From positions 2,387-66,386 of the forward strand of contig JAVBJT010000038.1 of the NCBI GenBank assembly GCA_031546845.1: a stretch of 64,000 bases of DNA, given 5' to 3'. The notes beneath the pieces were generated by a model. That model had not been told where the DNA came from, searched no databases, and was given only the letters and a program-made list of their open reading frames with translations. The stretch's first letter is position 1. The number at the start of each line of letters is the position of its first letter. The translations under genes and the position numbers were made by a program. Positions 41,799 through 48,052 of the stretch are shown piece by piece. Source of the stretch: Azoarcus sp. GTDB taxonomy: Bacteria; Pseudomonadota; Gammaproteobacteria; Burkholderiales; Rhodocyclaceae.

Positions 41799-41852
41799 AA
41801 CCCGCCTACGATATCCGCAGCAACAATATCCATTCATCACACGGGGCCGACC

Positions 41853-42128
41853 ATGGAAAAGGAAAATGAAAAGGATGACTACAATTTGCTGCACAGCTTT
41901 TCCATGGTGGAAGCCAGCTTGCATTACACCATCAGTGTTTTTGGCAATGAGCTCGCCAGAAGGGAGGGATACAAAGTCCACAGCGGACTCGGCGCGGTTC
42001 ATTACTACCTGTGCGTCAAATTCGGCTGGTTGCCGGAAAGAGTCCGCTCAATGAGTTGGCGCGATCTTCATTTTTTGCTGATAGAAGACATGCATGGCTG
42101 GACTATCCCCAAAGAAGCTCAGCGTTAG
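41853..42128 (+). CDS. Hypothetical protein (91 aa), first ORF of reduced-GC island
   Basis: ORF with plausible RBS; no family recognised; GC drops at ~41.8 kb. Confidence 0.35.
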   Translation: MEKENEKDDYNLLHSFSMVEASLHYTISVFGNELARREGYKVHSGLGAVHYYLCVKFGWLPERVRSMSWRDLHFLLIEDMHGWTIPKEAQR

Positions 42129-42203
42129 CGAAGCCTCCCCCGGAATTTCGTCTGCCAAGGGCGCCCTAAAAGGGGCGTCATTTTTGGAAGGCAGAAAACG
42201 GAG

Positions 42204-42428
42204 ATGCCGAAGCCTACACGTTCGAATTCAAAGAACTGACGGACAAAGCGTAGGTGCAGGGAACTCGGATTGGGCGATCAGACGTTGCGCAACGGGGTCA
42301 AGGCAGCAGCGGACGGCAAGCTAAACGATGCCGGCGGCAGAATCGTGGTGACTGAGGGAAGAGAACTTTCCAGGCTTTGCGCCGAAAATCCCCGGCTCAA
42401 GCGCAGAGCTCCCGCAGCTACGCATTAG
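42204..42428 (+). pseudogene. Decayed IS3-family transposase orfA remnant (frameshifted, internally deleted, no orfB)
   Basis: MPKPTRSNSKN* then in other frames FEFKELTDKA / ELGLGDQTLRNGVKAAADGKLNDAGGRIVVTEGRELSRLCAENPRLKR resembling IS3 OrfA (MPKPTRR.FS.EFK...HTH...leucine zipper ENxRLK). Confidence 0.5.
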
Positions 42429-42713
42429 TCATAATCCGACACCCCAAAGCCATCATTTTTGTATTCAAATCCAAGCAGTTGAGCCCGGAACGTATCGAAG
42501 GTAGCGGCAAGACCAAGAAAGCGTAGCCGCGTGGCGATGTAGACCGACTGCCCCTGCTAGCAAAAGGTGCGTTGAGCACTTACTATTCACTATGCTGTAA
42601 TTATAAGCGCCGCAATGGCCGTGCATAGATGAAGTCCCCAGCGGGGATAACTACAGCGCACAACGATAAATAGAGTTTTCCGACGAAAAACACAACAATT
42701 CAGGAGGAAAGCA

Positions 42714-43850
42714 ATGCACGTATTCAACGAACGCATCCGCAAGCACGCCAAGCATGTCAAAAGCGTCGGTGCGTATTGCAATACAGAAGAAACCACAAAG
42801 CAGGCGCTGATCCTGCCTATGCTCGACATTCTTGGTTTTTCACCGTTCGACCCGACAAAGGTAAAAGCCGAATATGGCGCTGACCTTCCTGGCGTAAAAA
42901 GCAGCGAGCGCATTGATTACGCGCTTTTTTGCCACGGTATGCCGGTAATGCTTATAGCGGTTAAGGCATACAGCGAAACGCTGGAAAATCACTGCCCACA
43001 ACTGGCGCGGTACTTCAATGCAACACCGAAAATGACCATTGCCGCCATCACGAACGGCAGAGAATGGCGCTTTTTTACTGGTCTCAACAACAAGAACGTG
43101 ATGGATGCAACGCCGTTTTTGTCCGTCAGCTTCGAGAACATGGATGGCACGCTGGTTAATCGTCTATCCCGCTTCCGCCATGACGAGTTCCAGCCGGAAG
43201 TTTTACGCATGCTGGCCGAGGAAACGGTGTACCTCAACGCCTTCACCGACGTAATCAGCCAAGCCTTGTGCAAACCGGACGCCGAGTTTGTCCGTTACGT
43301 GGCTGGACGAGCAGGCATCCAGCGTCAGATCAATGCTCGCTTCATCGAGTCGGCCACGCCTATCGTCAAGCAGGCGGTAGAACGGTCGGTCAGTAAAATG
43401 GCGGTATCCGGCCTGACGACAAAACCCATAAATTCAAAGCCGGTTGAAACGACAGATGAACAGCAAGACATTATCGATCCGGACAACCCGAAGATAGTTA
43501 CAACCTATGCCGAGCGGCGTATTTTCGAAGTTGCAAAAAACATTGTTGGCGATGCGGATATCATTGCACGAGACACGGAAAACTATTTCTCTGTCCTGTA
43601 CCAGAACAAGGCCAATCGTTGGTTGCTACGCTACTACGGCAACCGACGGCAACCGACGATTACCGTTTGTGTGCCGATGACGGAAGAAAGAAAGCACGAA
43701 ATTATCCGCGCCGGTTTGCAAATAGGGGCAGGAGATTCCATCCTTCTTCCGCAGCCTGAATATCTGCTGTGTATTCCTGGAATCATCTTTGACGCGCTAG
43801 AACACTGTAAGGATGACGCCAATTTCAAGCGTGCTCAGACCGTAGAATAG
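42714..43850 (+). CDS. Solo protein with type-I restriction enzyme HsdR N-terminal-like (PD-(D/E)xK) domain, unknown C-terminal region
   Basis: NTEETTKQALILPMLDILGF...RIDYALF...PVMLIAVKAY matches HsdR_N pattern (E.TK..I.P.L..LG...D..L....P....E.K) with Glu of ExK replaced by Ala; strong RBS aggagg. Confidence 0.5.
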   Translation: MHVFNERIRKHAKHVKSVGAYCNTEETTKQALILPMLDILGFSPFDPTKVKAEYGADLPGVKSSERIDYALFCHGMPVMLIAVKAYSETLENHCPQLARYFNATPKMTIAAITNGREWRFFTGLNNKNVMDATPFLSVSFENMDGTLVNRLSRFRHDEFQPEVLRMLAEETVYLNAFTDVISQALCKPDAEFVRYVAGRAGIQRQINARFIESATPIVKQAVERSVSKMAVSGLTTKPINSKPVETTDEQQDIIDPDNPKIVTTYAERRIFEVAKNIVGDADIIARDTENYFSVLYQNKANRWLLRYYGNRRQPTITVCVPMTEERKHEIIRAGLQIGAGDSILLPQPEYLLCIPGIIFDALEHCKDDANFKRAQTVE

Positions 43851-45985: not shown

Positions 45986-46930
45986 TCATGCGGCATTTCT
46001 CAGCCGGAATTCAATCGGGCTGAGCCCTTGCAGTCCGAGCTTGATGCGCTCATGGTTGTAGTAGCGAATGTAATCGCGCACACCAACTTCGAGCTGTGCA
46101 AGGTTGTCGAACTTGGCAAGGTGGAAGAATTCTGCCTTGAGCGTGCCGAAGAAACTCTCAATCGCCGCATTGTCAAAGCAGTTACCTTTTCGGCTCATGC
46201 TCTGTGTGACACCGTAACGCGCAAGCATCGCCCGGTACGGCTGCATCTTGTATTGCCAGCCTTGATCGGAGTGCAGGATTAGCCCGGTAGCAAACCGGGG
46301 AAGTGCCGCCTTAATCGTGCATGAGACCAACTCGAACACGGGGCGTCTGGCCATACGGTGCGCGATGATTTCGCCGTTGTACAGGTCCATGCAAGCTGAC
46401 AAGTAGAGCTTCTACCCCTTGACGTTGAATTCGGTGATATCGGTCACCCACTTCTGGGCGGAAATCGTAGCGCAGAAATCGCGTTGTAGAACATTGGGAA
46501 CGCACACATCGCTGAGACCGTGAGGACGCCGGTAGCGCCTCTTTGCTCGAATCAGAGAGCGTAGCCCCATCTGTTGCATGAGACGCTGTACGCGCTTGTG
46601 ATTAACGGGCTGCGCCAGTGCATTGCACAGCGCTGCTGCAATTCGCCTGTAGCCGTAACGCCCTTTGTGCTCGGTATAAATGGCGCAGATCTGGGCCTTT
46701 ATGTCGCCGTGCTTGTCAGTACGTTGCATAGCCCGGCGCTGATAGTAAAAGGTGCTGCGGGCAAGGTCCGCTACCTGCAACAGGACCTCCAATTTGTGGT
46801 ACCGCCTCAATCCGAGGATGATGCGCGCTTTATCGGCGCAACTGATCTTCTCGCCCGGATCAAGGCATGCAATTTTTTTAAGTAGGCCACCTCCGCGCGC
46901 AACCGCTCGTTCTCTTCGCGCAAGTTGCAC
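45986..46930 (-). pseudogene. IS3-family transposase OrfB (DDE integrase) interrupted by nonsense codon
   Basis: ...FNVKG*KLYLSACMDLYNGEIIAHRM...HSDQGWQY...NCFDNAAIESFFGTLK (DDE motif); TAG replaces expected Glu codon. Confidence 0.75.
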
Positions 46931-47361
46931 ATTGAGTCGGTAGTGACCGTGCTCGGCGGCACGGGGTGAAATCGGGTCGGTTTCATACTGGGGCGCCCTT
47001 GCTTGCAGTTCTCAAGTGCTGCCACTCCATCCATGTCGAGTTTGCGCCGCCAGACCACGACCTGATTGGGATTGCGGATGTCGTAGATCGCAGCCACCTG
47101 TCGACTCGATAGCTGTTCACGATCCTGGTGGGACAGCACCTGCAGCTTGAATTGCGCGCTGTAAACGCTTCGCTTGGGCCGCAAGCCGTCGATGCCATGC
47201 AATCGGTAGTGACTCACCCAGGTGCGAATCTTCTCCTCGGACACCGACCAGCGCCGCGCCAGCAGCTTCGCTCCGCCGTCACCAGCCAGAAAGCTCTTGA
47301 CTACCTTGAGCTTGAACGCTGTTTCGTACTTTGCCATGAAACCCCCTTGAAGTTCGTCCAA
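46807..47361 (-). CDS. IS3-family transposase OrfA
   Basis: MAKYETAFKLKVVKSFLAGDGGAKLLARRWSVSEEKIRTWVSHYRLHGIDGL ... LREENERLRAEVAYLKKL. Confidence 0.8.
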   Translation of the reverse strand: MDELQGGFMAKYETAFKLKVVKSFLAGDGGAKLLARRWSVSEEKIRTWVSHYRLHGIDGLRPKRSVYSAQFKLQVLSHQDREQLSSRQVAAIYDIRNPNQVVVWRRKLDMDGVAALENCKQGRPSMKPTRFHPVPPSTVTTDSMCNLREENERLRAEVAYLKKLHALIRARRSVAPIKRASSSD

Positions 47362-47391
47362 CTTCTGGGGGGCAGTTCAAACACGGGGCGA

Positions 47392-48019
47392 TTCACTTGC
47401 GGCGGGGCTTACGTCATCCAGGGGCGCAACATCTATGGCTGCGCCACCCACAAAAACTGCGGCGACTCCGTATGTAGAAACGGCCTCAAGGTAAAGCGCG
47501 AGACCATCGAGCAGATCCTGCTCTCTGGCGTAAAACAAGACCTACTTTCAGAAAGCGCTTATCGCCAATTCAAGACTGAAGCACGCTCCCTGCTCAAGCA
47601 AAGCAAACTCGACGCCACACAAGCACGGAAGCAACTCACCTCCGCCAAGAGTGAAATCGAAAATATCCTGACTGCAATTCGTGCAGACATCGTGACCACC
47701 AGCACCAAGGCCGCCCTTGAGGAGACCCGAACAACGCGCCCAAGCGGCAGAGACCAGAATCCGCGCCTGCAACGCTTTCGAGCCCTCGCAGATGTTGCCA
47801 CGCGCGCGAGAAATATTCCGGGATCTCGTAGCAAAACTGGAGGCGATCGAAGACGTAGGCACAGCCCGTGAAGCGCTTCGCGACCTAATCGGAGAAGTAC
47901 GGCTGGCGCCAGAAAACGGTTCTCTGACCGCAGAAATGCAAAGCGCCGGACTTGCCGGCGCTTTGCATTCAACATTGGTTGCGGGGGCAGGATTTGAACC
48001 TGCGACCTTCGGGTTATGA
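47392..48019 (+). pseudogene. Large serine recombinase, C-terminal remnant (zinc ribbon + coiled coil), N-terminally truncated by the IS and frameshifted near 47740
   Basis: CGGAYVIQGRNIYGCATHKNCGDSVCRNGL zinc-ribbon, then coiled-coil continuing in a second frame (…LIGEVRLAPENGSLTAEMQSAGLAGALHSTLVAGAGF) reading into tRNA-fMet 3' end. Confidence 0.55.
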
Positions 48020-48052
48020 GCCCGACGAGCTGCCAAGCTGCTCCACCCCGCG
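47976..48052 (-). tRNA. Initiator tRNA-fMet (anticodon CAT)
   Basis: Minus strand CGCGGGGTGGAGCAGCTTGGCAGCTCGTCGGGCTCATAACCCGAAGGTCGCAGGTTCAAATCCTGCCCCCGCAACCA; C1·A72 mismatch and three G-C pairs in anticodon stem characteristic of bacterial initiator tRNA. Confidence 0.9.

Follow-up and report, generated by a model that had tools for sequence, protein, structure and literature searches.

The large serine recombinases (LSRs) of phiC31, Bxb1 and A118, together with CcrA/B/C of SCCmec and XisF of Anabaena, act on protein-coding or intergenic targets, and only the 2-bp crossover is common to the element and its target. Intact relatives of the recombinase remnant described here, which lies in a 64,000-nucleotide stretch of the Azoarcus sp. 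contig JAVBJT010000038.1 (hereafter the window), have the same domain order as these classical enzymes. However, the attachment site of the element (attP) appears in this case to lie inside the recombinase gene, where a 24-nt copy of the end of the initiator tRNA gene (tRNA-fMet) would rebuild that gene. An initial annotation, made from the sequence alone, had described the segment at 41.8-48.0 kb of the window as a decayed, serially accreted genomic island at the 3' end of tRNA-fMet. An LSR remnant beside the tRNA, an older LSR tail in attP form and the difference from a related genome agree with that description, and we consider it very probable that the segment is the eroded residue of at least two phage-type LSR elements, serially inserted into the tRNA-fMet gene of an Azoarcus-like member of the Rhodocyclaceae.

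Mageeney et al. (2020) assigned tRNA or tmRNA targets to 14 of 297 serine integrases, a usage that they described as previously unreported and in need of experimental proof (PMC7192596). In the literature searched, we found no paper that pairs a serine recombinase with tRNA-fMet. A temperate siphovirus of Paracoccus aminophilus, phiPam-6 (vB_PamS_Pami6), encodes a serine recombinase and uses the 3' end of tRNA-Met(CAT) as its integration site, where the prophage is bounded by a short direct repeat of the tRNA terminus; induction by mitomycin was shown experimentally (PMC3925955; PMC6536676). The likeness to the present locus concerns the possession of a serine recombinase, the tRNA-Met site and the flanking repeat. 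In contrast to the remnants in the window, phiPam-6 is a complete, active phage, and its repeat of 17 bp (CCCTCCTCCGCTACCAT) terminates in ...GCTACCA, while the tRNA of the window terminates in ...CGCAACCA; on this reading of the repeat, its target would be a different CAT-anticodon tRNA.

The islands that tyrosine integrases form at tRNA genes (P4-like elements, tandem arrays) are similar in several respects: the integrase gene is adjacent to the tRNA, the element brings a substitute for the tRNA 3' end, the copy that is displaced becomes a direct repeat, and repeated use of one tRNA leads to tandem, decaying arrays. They differ in enzyme family and chemistry, and the recombinase gene of the present locus converges on the tRNA gene and overlaps it. 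The object in the window is itself decayed; as far as we found, the size of its recombinase clade, the overlap of gene and tRNA, the embedded hairpin and the two alternative C-termini described below are new.

A recombinase remnant that ends inside the initiator tRNA gene

The tRNA-Met(CAT) gene named in the initial annotation is intact and is called independently by ARAGORN and Rfam (Table 1). A C1xA72 mismatch, three G:C pairs (GGG/CCC) in the anticodon stem and an A11:U24 pair, all of them marks of initiator tRNA, can be read from its sequence. It forms one border of the island and is directly adjoined by an LSR remnant, which ends at 48019, within the tRNA gene. The last 44 nt of the remnant are tRNA antisense and its stop codon, TGA, falls in the anticodon loop, so that the remnant indeed reads into the tRNA 3' end, as had been noted.

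When the intact 527-aa LSR of L081, a metagenome-assembled genome of Ectothiorhodospiraceae, was compared with the window by tblastn, residues 322-436 and 432-527 matched in two frames (E 4.8e-56), and residues 1-321 had no match anywhere in the 64 kb. A frameshift lies at ~47729-47736. The Resolvase-type catalytic domain (PF00239) and the Recombinase domain (PF07508), both of which are present in L081 and in two metagenome contigs with full-length genes (L108 and L111), the latter domain also in homologs of the remnant, were absent from the window in this comparison. The remnant starts at residue 322, inside the zinc ribbon PF13408 (312-366 in L081), where YGCATHKNCGDSVCRN aligns to the conserved Cys columns; the truncated piece fell short of E 0.01 with the Pfam model PF13408. 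Since residues 1-321 have no match, the window holds the remnant of a gene and not a recombinase. In agreement with the initial annotation, this younger of two recombinases in the segment appears to be dead. The gene seems, however, to be truncated rather than split by an IS3 element, as had been supposed: the left flank of the IS3 is the start of another IS3-family element, and no target duplication is present.

In an unrelated genome (L082, 9700-10000), an LSR remnant beside tRNA-fMet starts at residue 323, next to the 322 of the window, within the CxxCGG of the zinc ribbon, and runs in frame from unrelated upstream coding sequence. The near-identical starts may be a coincidence or may mark a fragile or targeted spot.

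A hairpin is written into the coding tail of the remnant beside the tRNA (Table 1). Its predicted energy is -33 kcal/mol (z -5.0), and none of 200 shuffles was equally stable. Comparable hairpins with other stem sequences occupy the same place in L081, L082, L087, L090, L091, L098 and L100, and the hairpin is weak or absent in L099, L101 and L102. A canonical hairpin-plus-T-run terminator stands beside the tRNA in L001, a related Azoarcus genome which has no recombinase tail there, and such terminators also occur on the host sides of the attL-type junctions that were examined. The hairpin is thus probably a terminator or processing signal for the tRNA gene, brought by the element within the C-terminal codons of its LSR. 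As a separate observation, an SAH riboswitch upstream of ahcY directly adjoins the opposite side of the tRNA-fMet of L082 (10657-10732).

A recombinase family that reads into tRNA-fMet

The reading frame of the remnant was rebuilt from 47401-47730 and 47717-48019 into a query of 205 residues, and 51 homologs were found. Nearly all of them end in LVAGAGFEPATFGL, which is the antisense translation of tRNA-fMet from the 3' end to the anticodon loop; this search selected its candidates by shared 5-residue words and was therefore biased by the tRNA-encoded tail, and all of its matches were short. The best 14 homologs have 50-65% identity across 77-100% of the 205 residues (E 1e-74 to 7.5e-52), and several of the 51 (P0001, P0003, P0009 and P0026) carry precomputed Pfam Recombinase and Zn_ribbon_recom domains. 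That the short top homologs constitute a stand-alone zinc-ribbon family was ruled out by the open frame of 527 aa in L081 and by the full-length members that dominate an exhaustive search. The 280-aa gene call deposited for L081 is only part of that frame, starting at residue 248. The whole LSR gene (Resolvase, Recombinase and Zn_ribbon_recom) closes a prophage-like gene set on the right, and its overlap with tRNA-fMet is 44 nt. In the intact relatives, the domain order is Resolvase, Recombinase, zinc ribbon and coiled coil; the NCBIfam models nearest to the L081 enzyme are CcrB and XisF, both far below their cutoffs.

An hmmsearch of 1.84 billion representatives gave 28135 matches at E <= 0.001 and 1701 at E <= 1e-30, the latter being representatives at 50% clustering. 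Among the 150 best representatives, 79 end in the tRNA-antisense peptide VAGAGFEPATFGL, as do 54 of the 88 that are at least 480 aa long; these fractions are biased upward, since the profile, built from 15 homologs, included the tRNA-encoded tail. A further 13 of the 150 end in ...GGRI, which in two viral contigs corresponds to the same tRNA read in another frame, with the stop in the T-loop. A scan of IMG/VR yielded 19 predicted viral contigs with relatives (4.8-62 kb, most of them 17-62 kb). Most of their frames are open over ~510-646 aa, and four are cut at the contig end or are shorter. Wherever the full upstream flank is present, the gene lies at or near the end of the prophage contig, and wherever the flank is present it overlaps tRNA-Met(cat). 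Thus, the view that the initiator tRNA is an unusual integration site does not hold for this recombinase clade, of which tRNA-fMet appears to be a regular target. Members occur in loci titled Rhodocyclaceae/Azoarcus and Ectothiorhodospiraceae, and judging from the tail variants FGL and FRL, the clade probably spans Alphaproteobacteria as well.

Four further features of individual relatives were seen. The LSRs of viral contigs L098 and L100 enter the tRNA in another frame and stop at the T-loop TGA (tail ...GGRI). In viral contigs L092-L094, the identity with the tRNA continues through the anticodon loop before divergence. The phage-like contig L083 (2096-2880, equal to L113 620-1067) combines a full attP-form LSR with a diversity-generating retroelement signature (bAvd, RT-15 RNA 173 bits) and a C4 RNA. 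Lastly, ARAGORN called a 93-nt "tRNA-Ala" within the N-terminal coding region of the L081 LSR (9296-9388), which Rfam did not confirm and which is probably a false positive.

An older junction within the segment

What the initial annotation had described as a 105-bp repeat is indeed an older copy of the recombinase tail and attachment site, although the repeat measures 112 nt at 88% identity (43884-43995 versus 47886-47997). By tblastn, the older copy aligns to residues 484-521 of the L081 LSR. The open reading frame (ORF) at 43880-44038 is 71% identical to residues 484-534, the last 51, of the full-length 534-aa LSR of contig L111, and it stops at the same stop codon, 14 codons past the point where the two copies in the window part. 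The LSR tail is followed at 43974-43997 by a mimic of the tRNA-fMet 3' end (20 of 24 positions match); the 24-nt tRNA 3' end was present in none of 100 shuffles.

At the junction, the older copy reads TGGTTGCGGGGACAGAATTCGACC before the break and GTTGTTTGCC after it, and the tRNA-proximal copy reads TGGTTGCGGGGGCAGGATTTGAAC and then CTGCGACC; the identity breaks 24 nt into the tRNA. The sequence after the break in the older copy, taken as the start of the P' arm, resembles those of L083, L111 and L107. The same point of divergence, ...GA(A/C)C followed by GTT..., recurs in L082, L083/L113, L105 and L107-L112, and the attP stretch of the family reads ...TGGTTGCGGGGGCAGGATTTGA(A/C)CGTT... In L083, the break and its GTT follow a full LSR gene; in L082, they lie 3.6 kb from its tRNA. 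A degenerate pattern detected 11 metagenome contigs with the same break and GTT, and the attP-type junction pattern had no match in the viral-contig scan. An LSR stands upstream of the break in four of the 11 (as a full-length frame in L108, L111 and L113, and as a contig-truncated C-terminal stretch of 162 aa in L105), and these would represent either the attP configuration or a junction inside a tandem array. In the remaining seven, no LSR precedes the break; in L107 and L109, whose upstream sides were read, a hairpin-plus-T-run occupies the host side, a form that points to the attL configuration. Because the identity of the window tRNA with attP-type junctions stops after 24 nt, the 3' 24 nt of the tRNA (47976-47999) appear to be the part that an integrating element replaces, and the crossover would take place within these shared nucleotides, i.e., in the T-arm.

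An LSR tail that is followed by a tRNA mimic and then by a P' arm (P-O-P') implies that a second element recombined with a tRNA rebuilt by the first, or that a dimer was inserted; an attL site would show the tRNA fragment only. Two different elements are indicated because the tails diverge by 12% and the DNA to the left of each tail is unrelated, no similarity having been found between them. The older repeat thus looks like the signature of tandem integration, which requires a second, earlier element. It might instead be argued that integration occurred once and that the repeat at 43.9 kb arose later, by duplication or rearrangement of the attR region (e.g., mediated by an insertion sequence, IS) or through head-to-tail insertion of a dimer. 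Rearrangements did occur here, as is evident from IS3-family debris at 42.2 and 45.8-47.4 kb and from an IS3 without target duplication, and a dimer would leave an identical internal P-O-P' junction. Nevertheless, 12% of positions distinguish the two copies although the tRNA itself is unchanged, and the DNA on their left sides is dissimilar. In addition, a copy of attR would run into tRNA, whereas the P' arm that follows the older copy encodes the same attP-form C-terminus, up to the stop codon, as independent full-length LSR genes. We therefore regard a single integration as quite improbable and retain serial integration of distinct elements.

The two configurations give the recombinase two C-termini. 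The free form, ...GF(D/E)R(C/Y)xxxxIRFxGLR, is found in L105, L111 and L113 (L108 ends in ...IRICGLS), and the same C-terminus occurs at the attL-type or internal junctions of L107, L109, L110, L115 and the older copy of the window (43996-44038). The prophage form ends in the tRNA-encoded ...PATFGL. Conservation of the alternative C-terminus may reflect either the protein or the attP half-site. Mycobacteriophages possess an integration-dependent immunity of comparable logic to a switch of integration state. We consider it unlikely that the isoforms behave differently, in their stability or in how directionality is controlled, and so build such a switch into a serine integrase.

Composition, borders and related genomes

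The upstream core (36000-41798) has a GC content of 0.63. At 41.8 kb, it falls to ~0.50-0.53 (0.50 at 41799-42128 and 0.51 at 42714-43850); it is 0.59 at 43996-44770, 0.36 at 44771-45839 and 0.56 in the IS3, with a minimum of 0.326 in 500-nt windows at 44.75-45.5 kb. The composition of the segment is therefore foreign, at 0.36-0.59 versus 0.63 in the flank. While the drop at ~41.8 kb to ~33% was correctly described in the initial annotation, the recovery that it placed at the tRNA was not found: the kinase gene beyond (48140-49546) has a GC content of 0.54, and host-like values of 0.61-0.63 return only from ~49.75 kb. The low GC suggested that the kinase gene belongs to the island, but this was ruled out because, among the first 40 related loci retrieved from Thauera, Azoarcus and other Rhodocyclaceae, ~25 show the kinase-MtaD synteny. 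The kinase flank is thus core despite its low GC.

Within the genome collection, the relatives closest to the window were assembled from metagenomes. L001 is one of these, an Azoarcus genome with 93% identity in MtaD. Its match to the window extends to 41798, resumes at 41825-42128 and starts again precisely at 47975, and its flanks are 86-89% identical. The stretch 42129-47975 has no counterpart in L001, which carries an IS630, a 170-aa ORF and the canonical terminator in its place; a comparison with related genomes, which had been proposed at the outset, thus revealed a difference across this whole stretch. In L002 (MtaD 75% identical; region 5434-8284), an LSR tail of 73 residues from another subfamily lies beside the tRNA, followed by a TIR-domain (ThsB-like) gene (7012-7815) and then by a P4-like tyrosine-integrase island (with the P4-like tyrosine integrase at 5434-6666 and AlpA-like and primase-like genes). 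A tRNA-only artefact as the source of this tail similarity was ruled out by a 73-residue match to the L091 LSR (E 8.5e-11). The tRNA-fMet genes of L001 and L002 are identical to that of the window. The locus appears to be a contested hotspot in this lineage, at which serine- and tyrosine-recombinase elements use one tRNA.

Could the mosaic be in part an artefact, produced when a draft or metagenome assembly linked contigs from separate organisms or loci through short repeats or the ends of IS elements? The GC content shifts abruptly at ~44.77 kb (0.59 to 0.36) and again, in reverse, at ~45.84 kb, the nearest relatives are metagenome-assembled, and exact-protein look-ups for the flanking methyltransferase and kinase genes, and for the database entry identical to the 281-aa ORF described below, returned no record. 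Even so, the key junctions are coherent and repeated elsewhere (the LSR tail runs into the tRNA in many loci, and P-O-P' recurs in L083, L108 and L111), repeat copies of only 88% identity would not be expected to cause a mis-join, and both flanks are collinear with L001. We consider such an artefact highly unlikely, and treat the segment below as a true succession of inserted elements.

Cargo genes and insertion sequences

Table 1. Features at and around the decayed island, in window coordinates
Feature	Position	Strand	Basis
GC 0.50 segment, with 91-aa ORF at 41853-42128	41799-42128	+	common to L001
IS3-family orfA fossil	~42205-42428	+	stop, frameshift, internal deletion
378-aa HsdR_N/DUF450-type putative endonuclease, intact	42714-43850	+	Pfam HSDR_N E 1.3e-11
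3' end of earlier LSR gene, putative attP configuration (P-O-P')	43884-44038	+	repeat and L111 alignment
Promoter-like TTGACC-18-TATGCT (44086-44115) and terminator-like site	44086-44208		sequence scan
C4 antisense RNA gene, P1/P7 immI type	44222-44308	+	Rfam RF01695
126-aa ORF between C4 and Ant (icd position of P1)	44357-44736	+	ORF reading
AntA/Ant antirepressor, N-terminal ~43 codons	44642-44770	+	Pfam AntA, phrog_5817
Low-GC patch (0.36), with 281-aa ORF at 44866-45711	44771-45839	-	GC; two hydrophobic stretches
Left end of second IS3-family element, 87 bp, first 8 codons MRKSRFTE	45840-45926	+	sequence, translation
IS3, 1472 bp; orfA 46807-47361, orfB 45986-46930	45927-47398	-	domains, inverted repeats
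C-terminal LSR remnant, 206 codons of ~530 aa	47399-48019	+	tblastn with L081 LSR
Hairpin, 16 bp, within LSR coding tail	47937-47969	-	~10 nt downstream of tRNA CCA end
tRNA-Met(CAT), initiator type, intact	47976-48052	-	ARAGORN; Rfam 62.9 bits

All eight components listed in the initial annotation were recovered at or close to their given positions, with some changes of identity. The 91-aa ORF, which had been called an orphan, is not one: the segment 41825-42128 has 89.8% identity to L001 5869-6172, which likewise follows the methyltransferase gene, the protein is 90% identical, and a homolog occurs in an LSR prophage (L088; 34%, E 1.9e-13). Its NCBIfam score for the phage-associated ECs1072 family is 28 bits, below the cutoff of 70 bits. 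This ORF appears to represent the oldest, phage-derived layer. The HsdR-N-like protein is present as an intact member of phrog_4225 "endonuclease" (E 4.4e-130, full length). It shares 54% identity with a protein of Klebsiella phage KpF5, and 19 phage records contain full-length matches.

The supposed small-RNA promoter-terminator unit does have such sites, but it adjoins or includes the C4 antisense RNA of a P1-type c4-ant module. The C4 RNA covers model positions 1-87 of 87 with 61.7 bits against a gathering threshold of 45 (E 1.8e-11), and the LSR phage contig L083/L113 has a C4 RNA of its own. The putative pairing of the C4 RNA of the window with the downstream leader had a whole-length duplexfold energy above all 500 shuffles, but other segments of the island scored equally well or better, so that this comparison does not discriminate. 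As in immI of P1/P7 (c4-icd-ant), the order is a full-length C4, a small ORF and an Ant-family gene that overlaps it. Unlike in P1/P7, the intervening ORF has no detectable family similarity (the 126-aa product had no match in Pfam, PHROG, NCBIfam or PADLOC), and Ant is cut after ~43 codons. The ORF overlaps the start of Ant by ~95 nt. The AntA-like fragment, likewise anticipated, matches positions 1-24 of 68 of Pfam AntA (E 0.0022, below the cutoff) and, with residues 11-43, the anti-repressor Ant of phrog_5817 (E 2.8e-6). It ends where the low GC starts, near 44770 as estimated from the sequence. The C4 RNA, Ant, phrog_4225 and the homolog of the 91-aa ORF in prophage L088 together point to a phage origin of the cargo.

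The membrane ORF of 33% GC corresponds to the 281-aa ORF, whose DNA has a GC content of 33-36% and whose product has two hydrophobic stretches. Its sole match among 5.8 billion clustered proteins is a 100%-identical entry of 263 aa, which presumably comes from the source assembly. A sub-threshold match to Pfam DUF7365 (E 0.0057, 17.2 bits versus a cutoff of 27) was obtained, and no family in PHROG, NCBIfam or PADLOC; by these searches, it would be an ORFan. No tyrosine integrase, whose absence the initial annotation had stated for the element as a whole, was matched by Pfam among the ten island ORFs or ORF pieces scanned, a set that does not comprise every ORF or the entire 64 kb.

Both the phrog_4225 gene and the 281-aa ORF are uninterrupted among badly damaged neighbours, so that one or both might have been domesticated and kept by selection to protect the host, e.g., against phage. 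HsdR_N/DUF450 genes are recurrent accessory genes of temperate phages in many hosts, and L002 carries its TIR (ThsB-like) gene at the same tRNA. Neither ORF was matched by PADLOC, however, the 281-aa ORF has no other homolog, and L001 lacks both genes. A cargo island under selection seems unlikely to us; it would in any case explain why the island persists rather than how it arose, and is compatible with serial insertion of LSR elements.

Three IS3-family elements were recognized. The orfA fossil noted at first is indeed present, and lies where the homology with L001 ends (42128). It reads in a three-frame translation MPKPTRSNSKN, a stop, and then ...LGDQTLRNGVKAAADGKLN...LSRLCAENPRLKR, and matches Pfam HTH_Tnp_1 at 19.4 bits (E 0.0012, below the cutoff). 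The 87-bp left end of a second element, TGACCTGCCC..., which we take to be IS407-like, had one plasmid match (H2, Variovorax) covering the query from base 6, and is truncated by the 1472-bp IS3. The latter has terminal inverted repeats of 42 nt (98%) and the Pfam domains HTH_28, HTH_Tnp_1, HTH_21, rve, rve_2 and rve_3. As is usual in the IS3 family, its orfA (helix-turn-helix) and orfB (rve, DDE) overlap at a slippery A7 run, read from the sequence at ~46873-46879. Unlike a typical IS3, it contains a nonsense codon in orfB (an in-frame TAG, ...EFNVKG-stop-KLYLS), by which the transposase is inactivated, and no 3-bp target-site duplication was found, the flanking triplets differing at any assumed ends. 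The best plasmid match, annotated "IS3 family transposase", is 75.7% identical. Since the target duplication is missing and the left flank is unrelated, an IS-associated rearrangement appears to have removed the front of the recombinase gene.

Discussion

In the mechanism we propose, attP of the family would lie within the 3' end of the recombinase gene, and its P arm would carry the hairpin together with a duplicate of the final 24 nt of tRNA-fMet, both in antisense. An intact tRNA would be rebuilt by recombination in the T-arm, after which the LSR would end in ...LVAGAGFE/PATFGL, with its stop in the anticodon loop. The homologies, the structure of the junctions, the inactivating lesions and the ways in which relatives differ are observed; from these we infer the following order of events. 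An old phage layer with the 91-aa ORF would have been present before the split from L001. A first element (E1) would then have integrated, of which the final 51 LSR codons remain and perhaps also the endonuclease gene of phrog_4225. A second (E2) would have entered the rebuilt tRNA, turning the end of E1 into the internal P-O-P' junction at 43884-44038; of this element, the P' end, the C4 RNA, the ORF in the icd position, the truncated Ant and the C-terminal 206 LSR codons may be what is left. The 1-kb low-GC patch and two nested IS3-family elements would have destroyed Ant and removed the first 321 LSR codons, a frameshift would have finished the LSR, and a nonsense codon the IS3 transposase. 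Finally, the outer attL may have been lost, possibly through the IS whose fossil marks the left border. The island is presumably immobile, because the catalytic half of the LSR and the outer attachment site are missing and a frameshift is present.

Several points weigh against this account. The outer left border (41.8-42.7 kb) has neither a tRNA 3' fragment, with up to 7 mismatches in 24 allowed, nor an LSR-type attL, and both the left limit and the assignment of 41799-43883 to E1 are drawn from composition and one relative only. A truly empty site was found in no relative, and the identity of the L001 flanks, 87-89%, is below strain level. The crossover is placed only by the end of identity, at a position that seems to be clade-specific, as the identity through the anticodon loop in L092-L094 illustrates. 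The first protein search and the profile of the second both included the tRNA-encoded tail. A comparison of the remnant with phage sequences had also been suggested; beyond the 19 viral contigs with relatives, the isolated-phage collection contained no close relative (tblastn with the LSR remnant, blastn with 43996-45930). If the contig derives from a draft or metagenome assembly, a chimeric join, e.g., at the low-GC patch, may be present.

For this genome, the result is routine: an area of dead mobile DNA is delimited, the tRNA is intact, and a few whole genes are named. The wider value lies in a large clade of serine integrases (1701 representatives) that would use the initiator tRNA gene and rebuild it from their own coding sequence, the natural target being the T-arm of a near-universal tRNA. 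Serine integrases work without host factors, and for that reason members of the clade, with an attP of ~50 bp, are candidate broad-host-range integration tools, directed at a sequence that nearly all bacteria possess. The locus is also an example of a single tRNA for which elements with serine recombinases and elements with tyrosine recombinases compete in sister lineages.

Other observations in the window

Just upstream of the methyltransferase gene, the region 40050-41204 contains a RES-domain toxin gene (40437-41204, Pfam RES E 1.4e-27) preceded by a small overlapping ORF. The pair resembles a toxin-antitoxin system of the RES-Xre type and is kept in L001. The short-chain dehydrogenase (SDR) gene at 39248-39994 has no counterpart in L001 (window 39154-39809), where the flanks are directly joined and fragments of ~20 residues are left; it is an indel difference outside the island. 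The GC skew is positive only at ~27-36 kb, starting from tRNA-Leu(TAA) at 27404-27488 (region ~26000-37000), and is negative elsewhere; this block could reflect an opposite gene orientation or an inversion.

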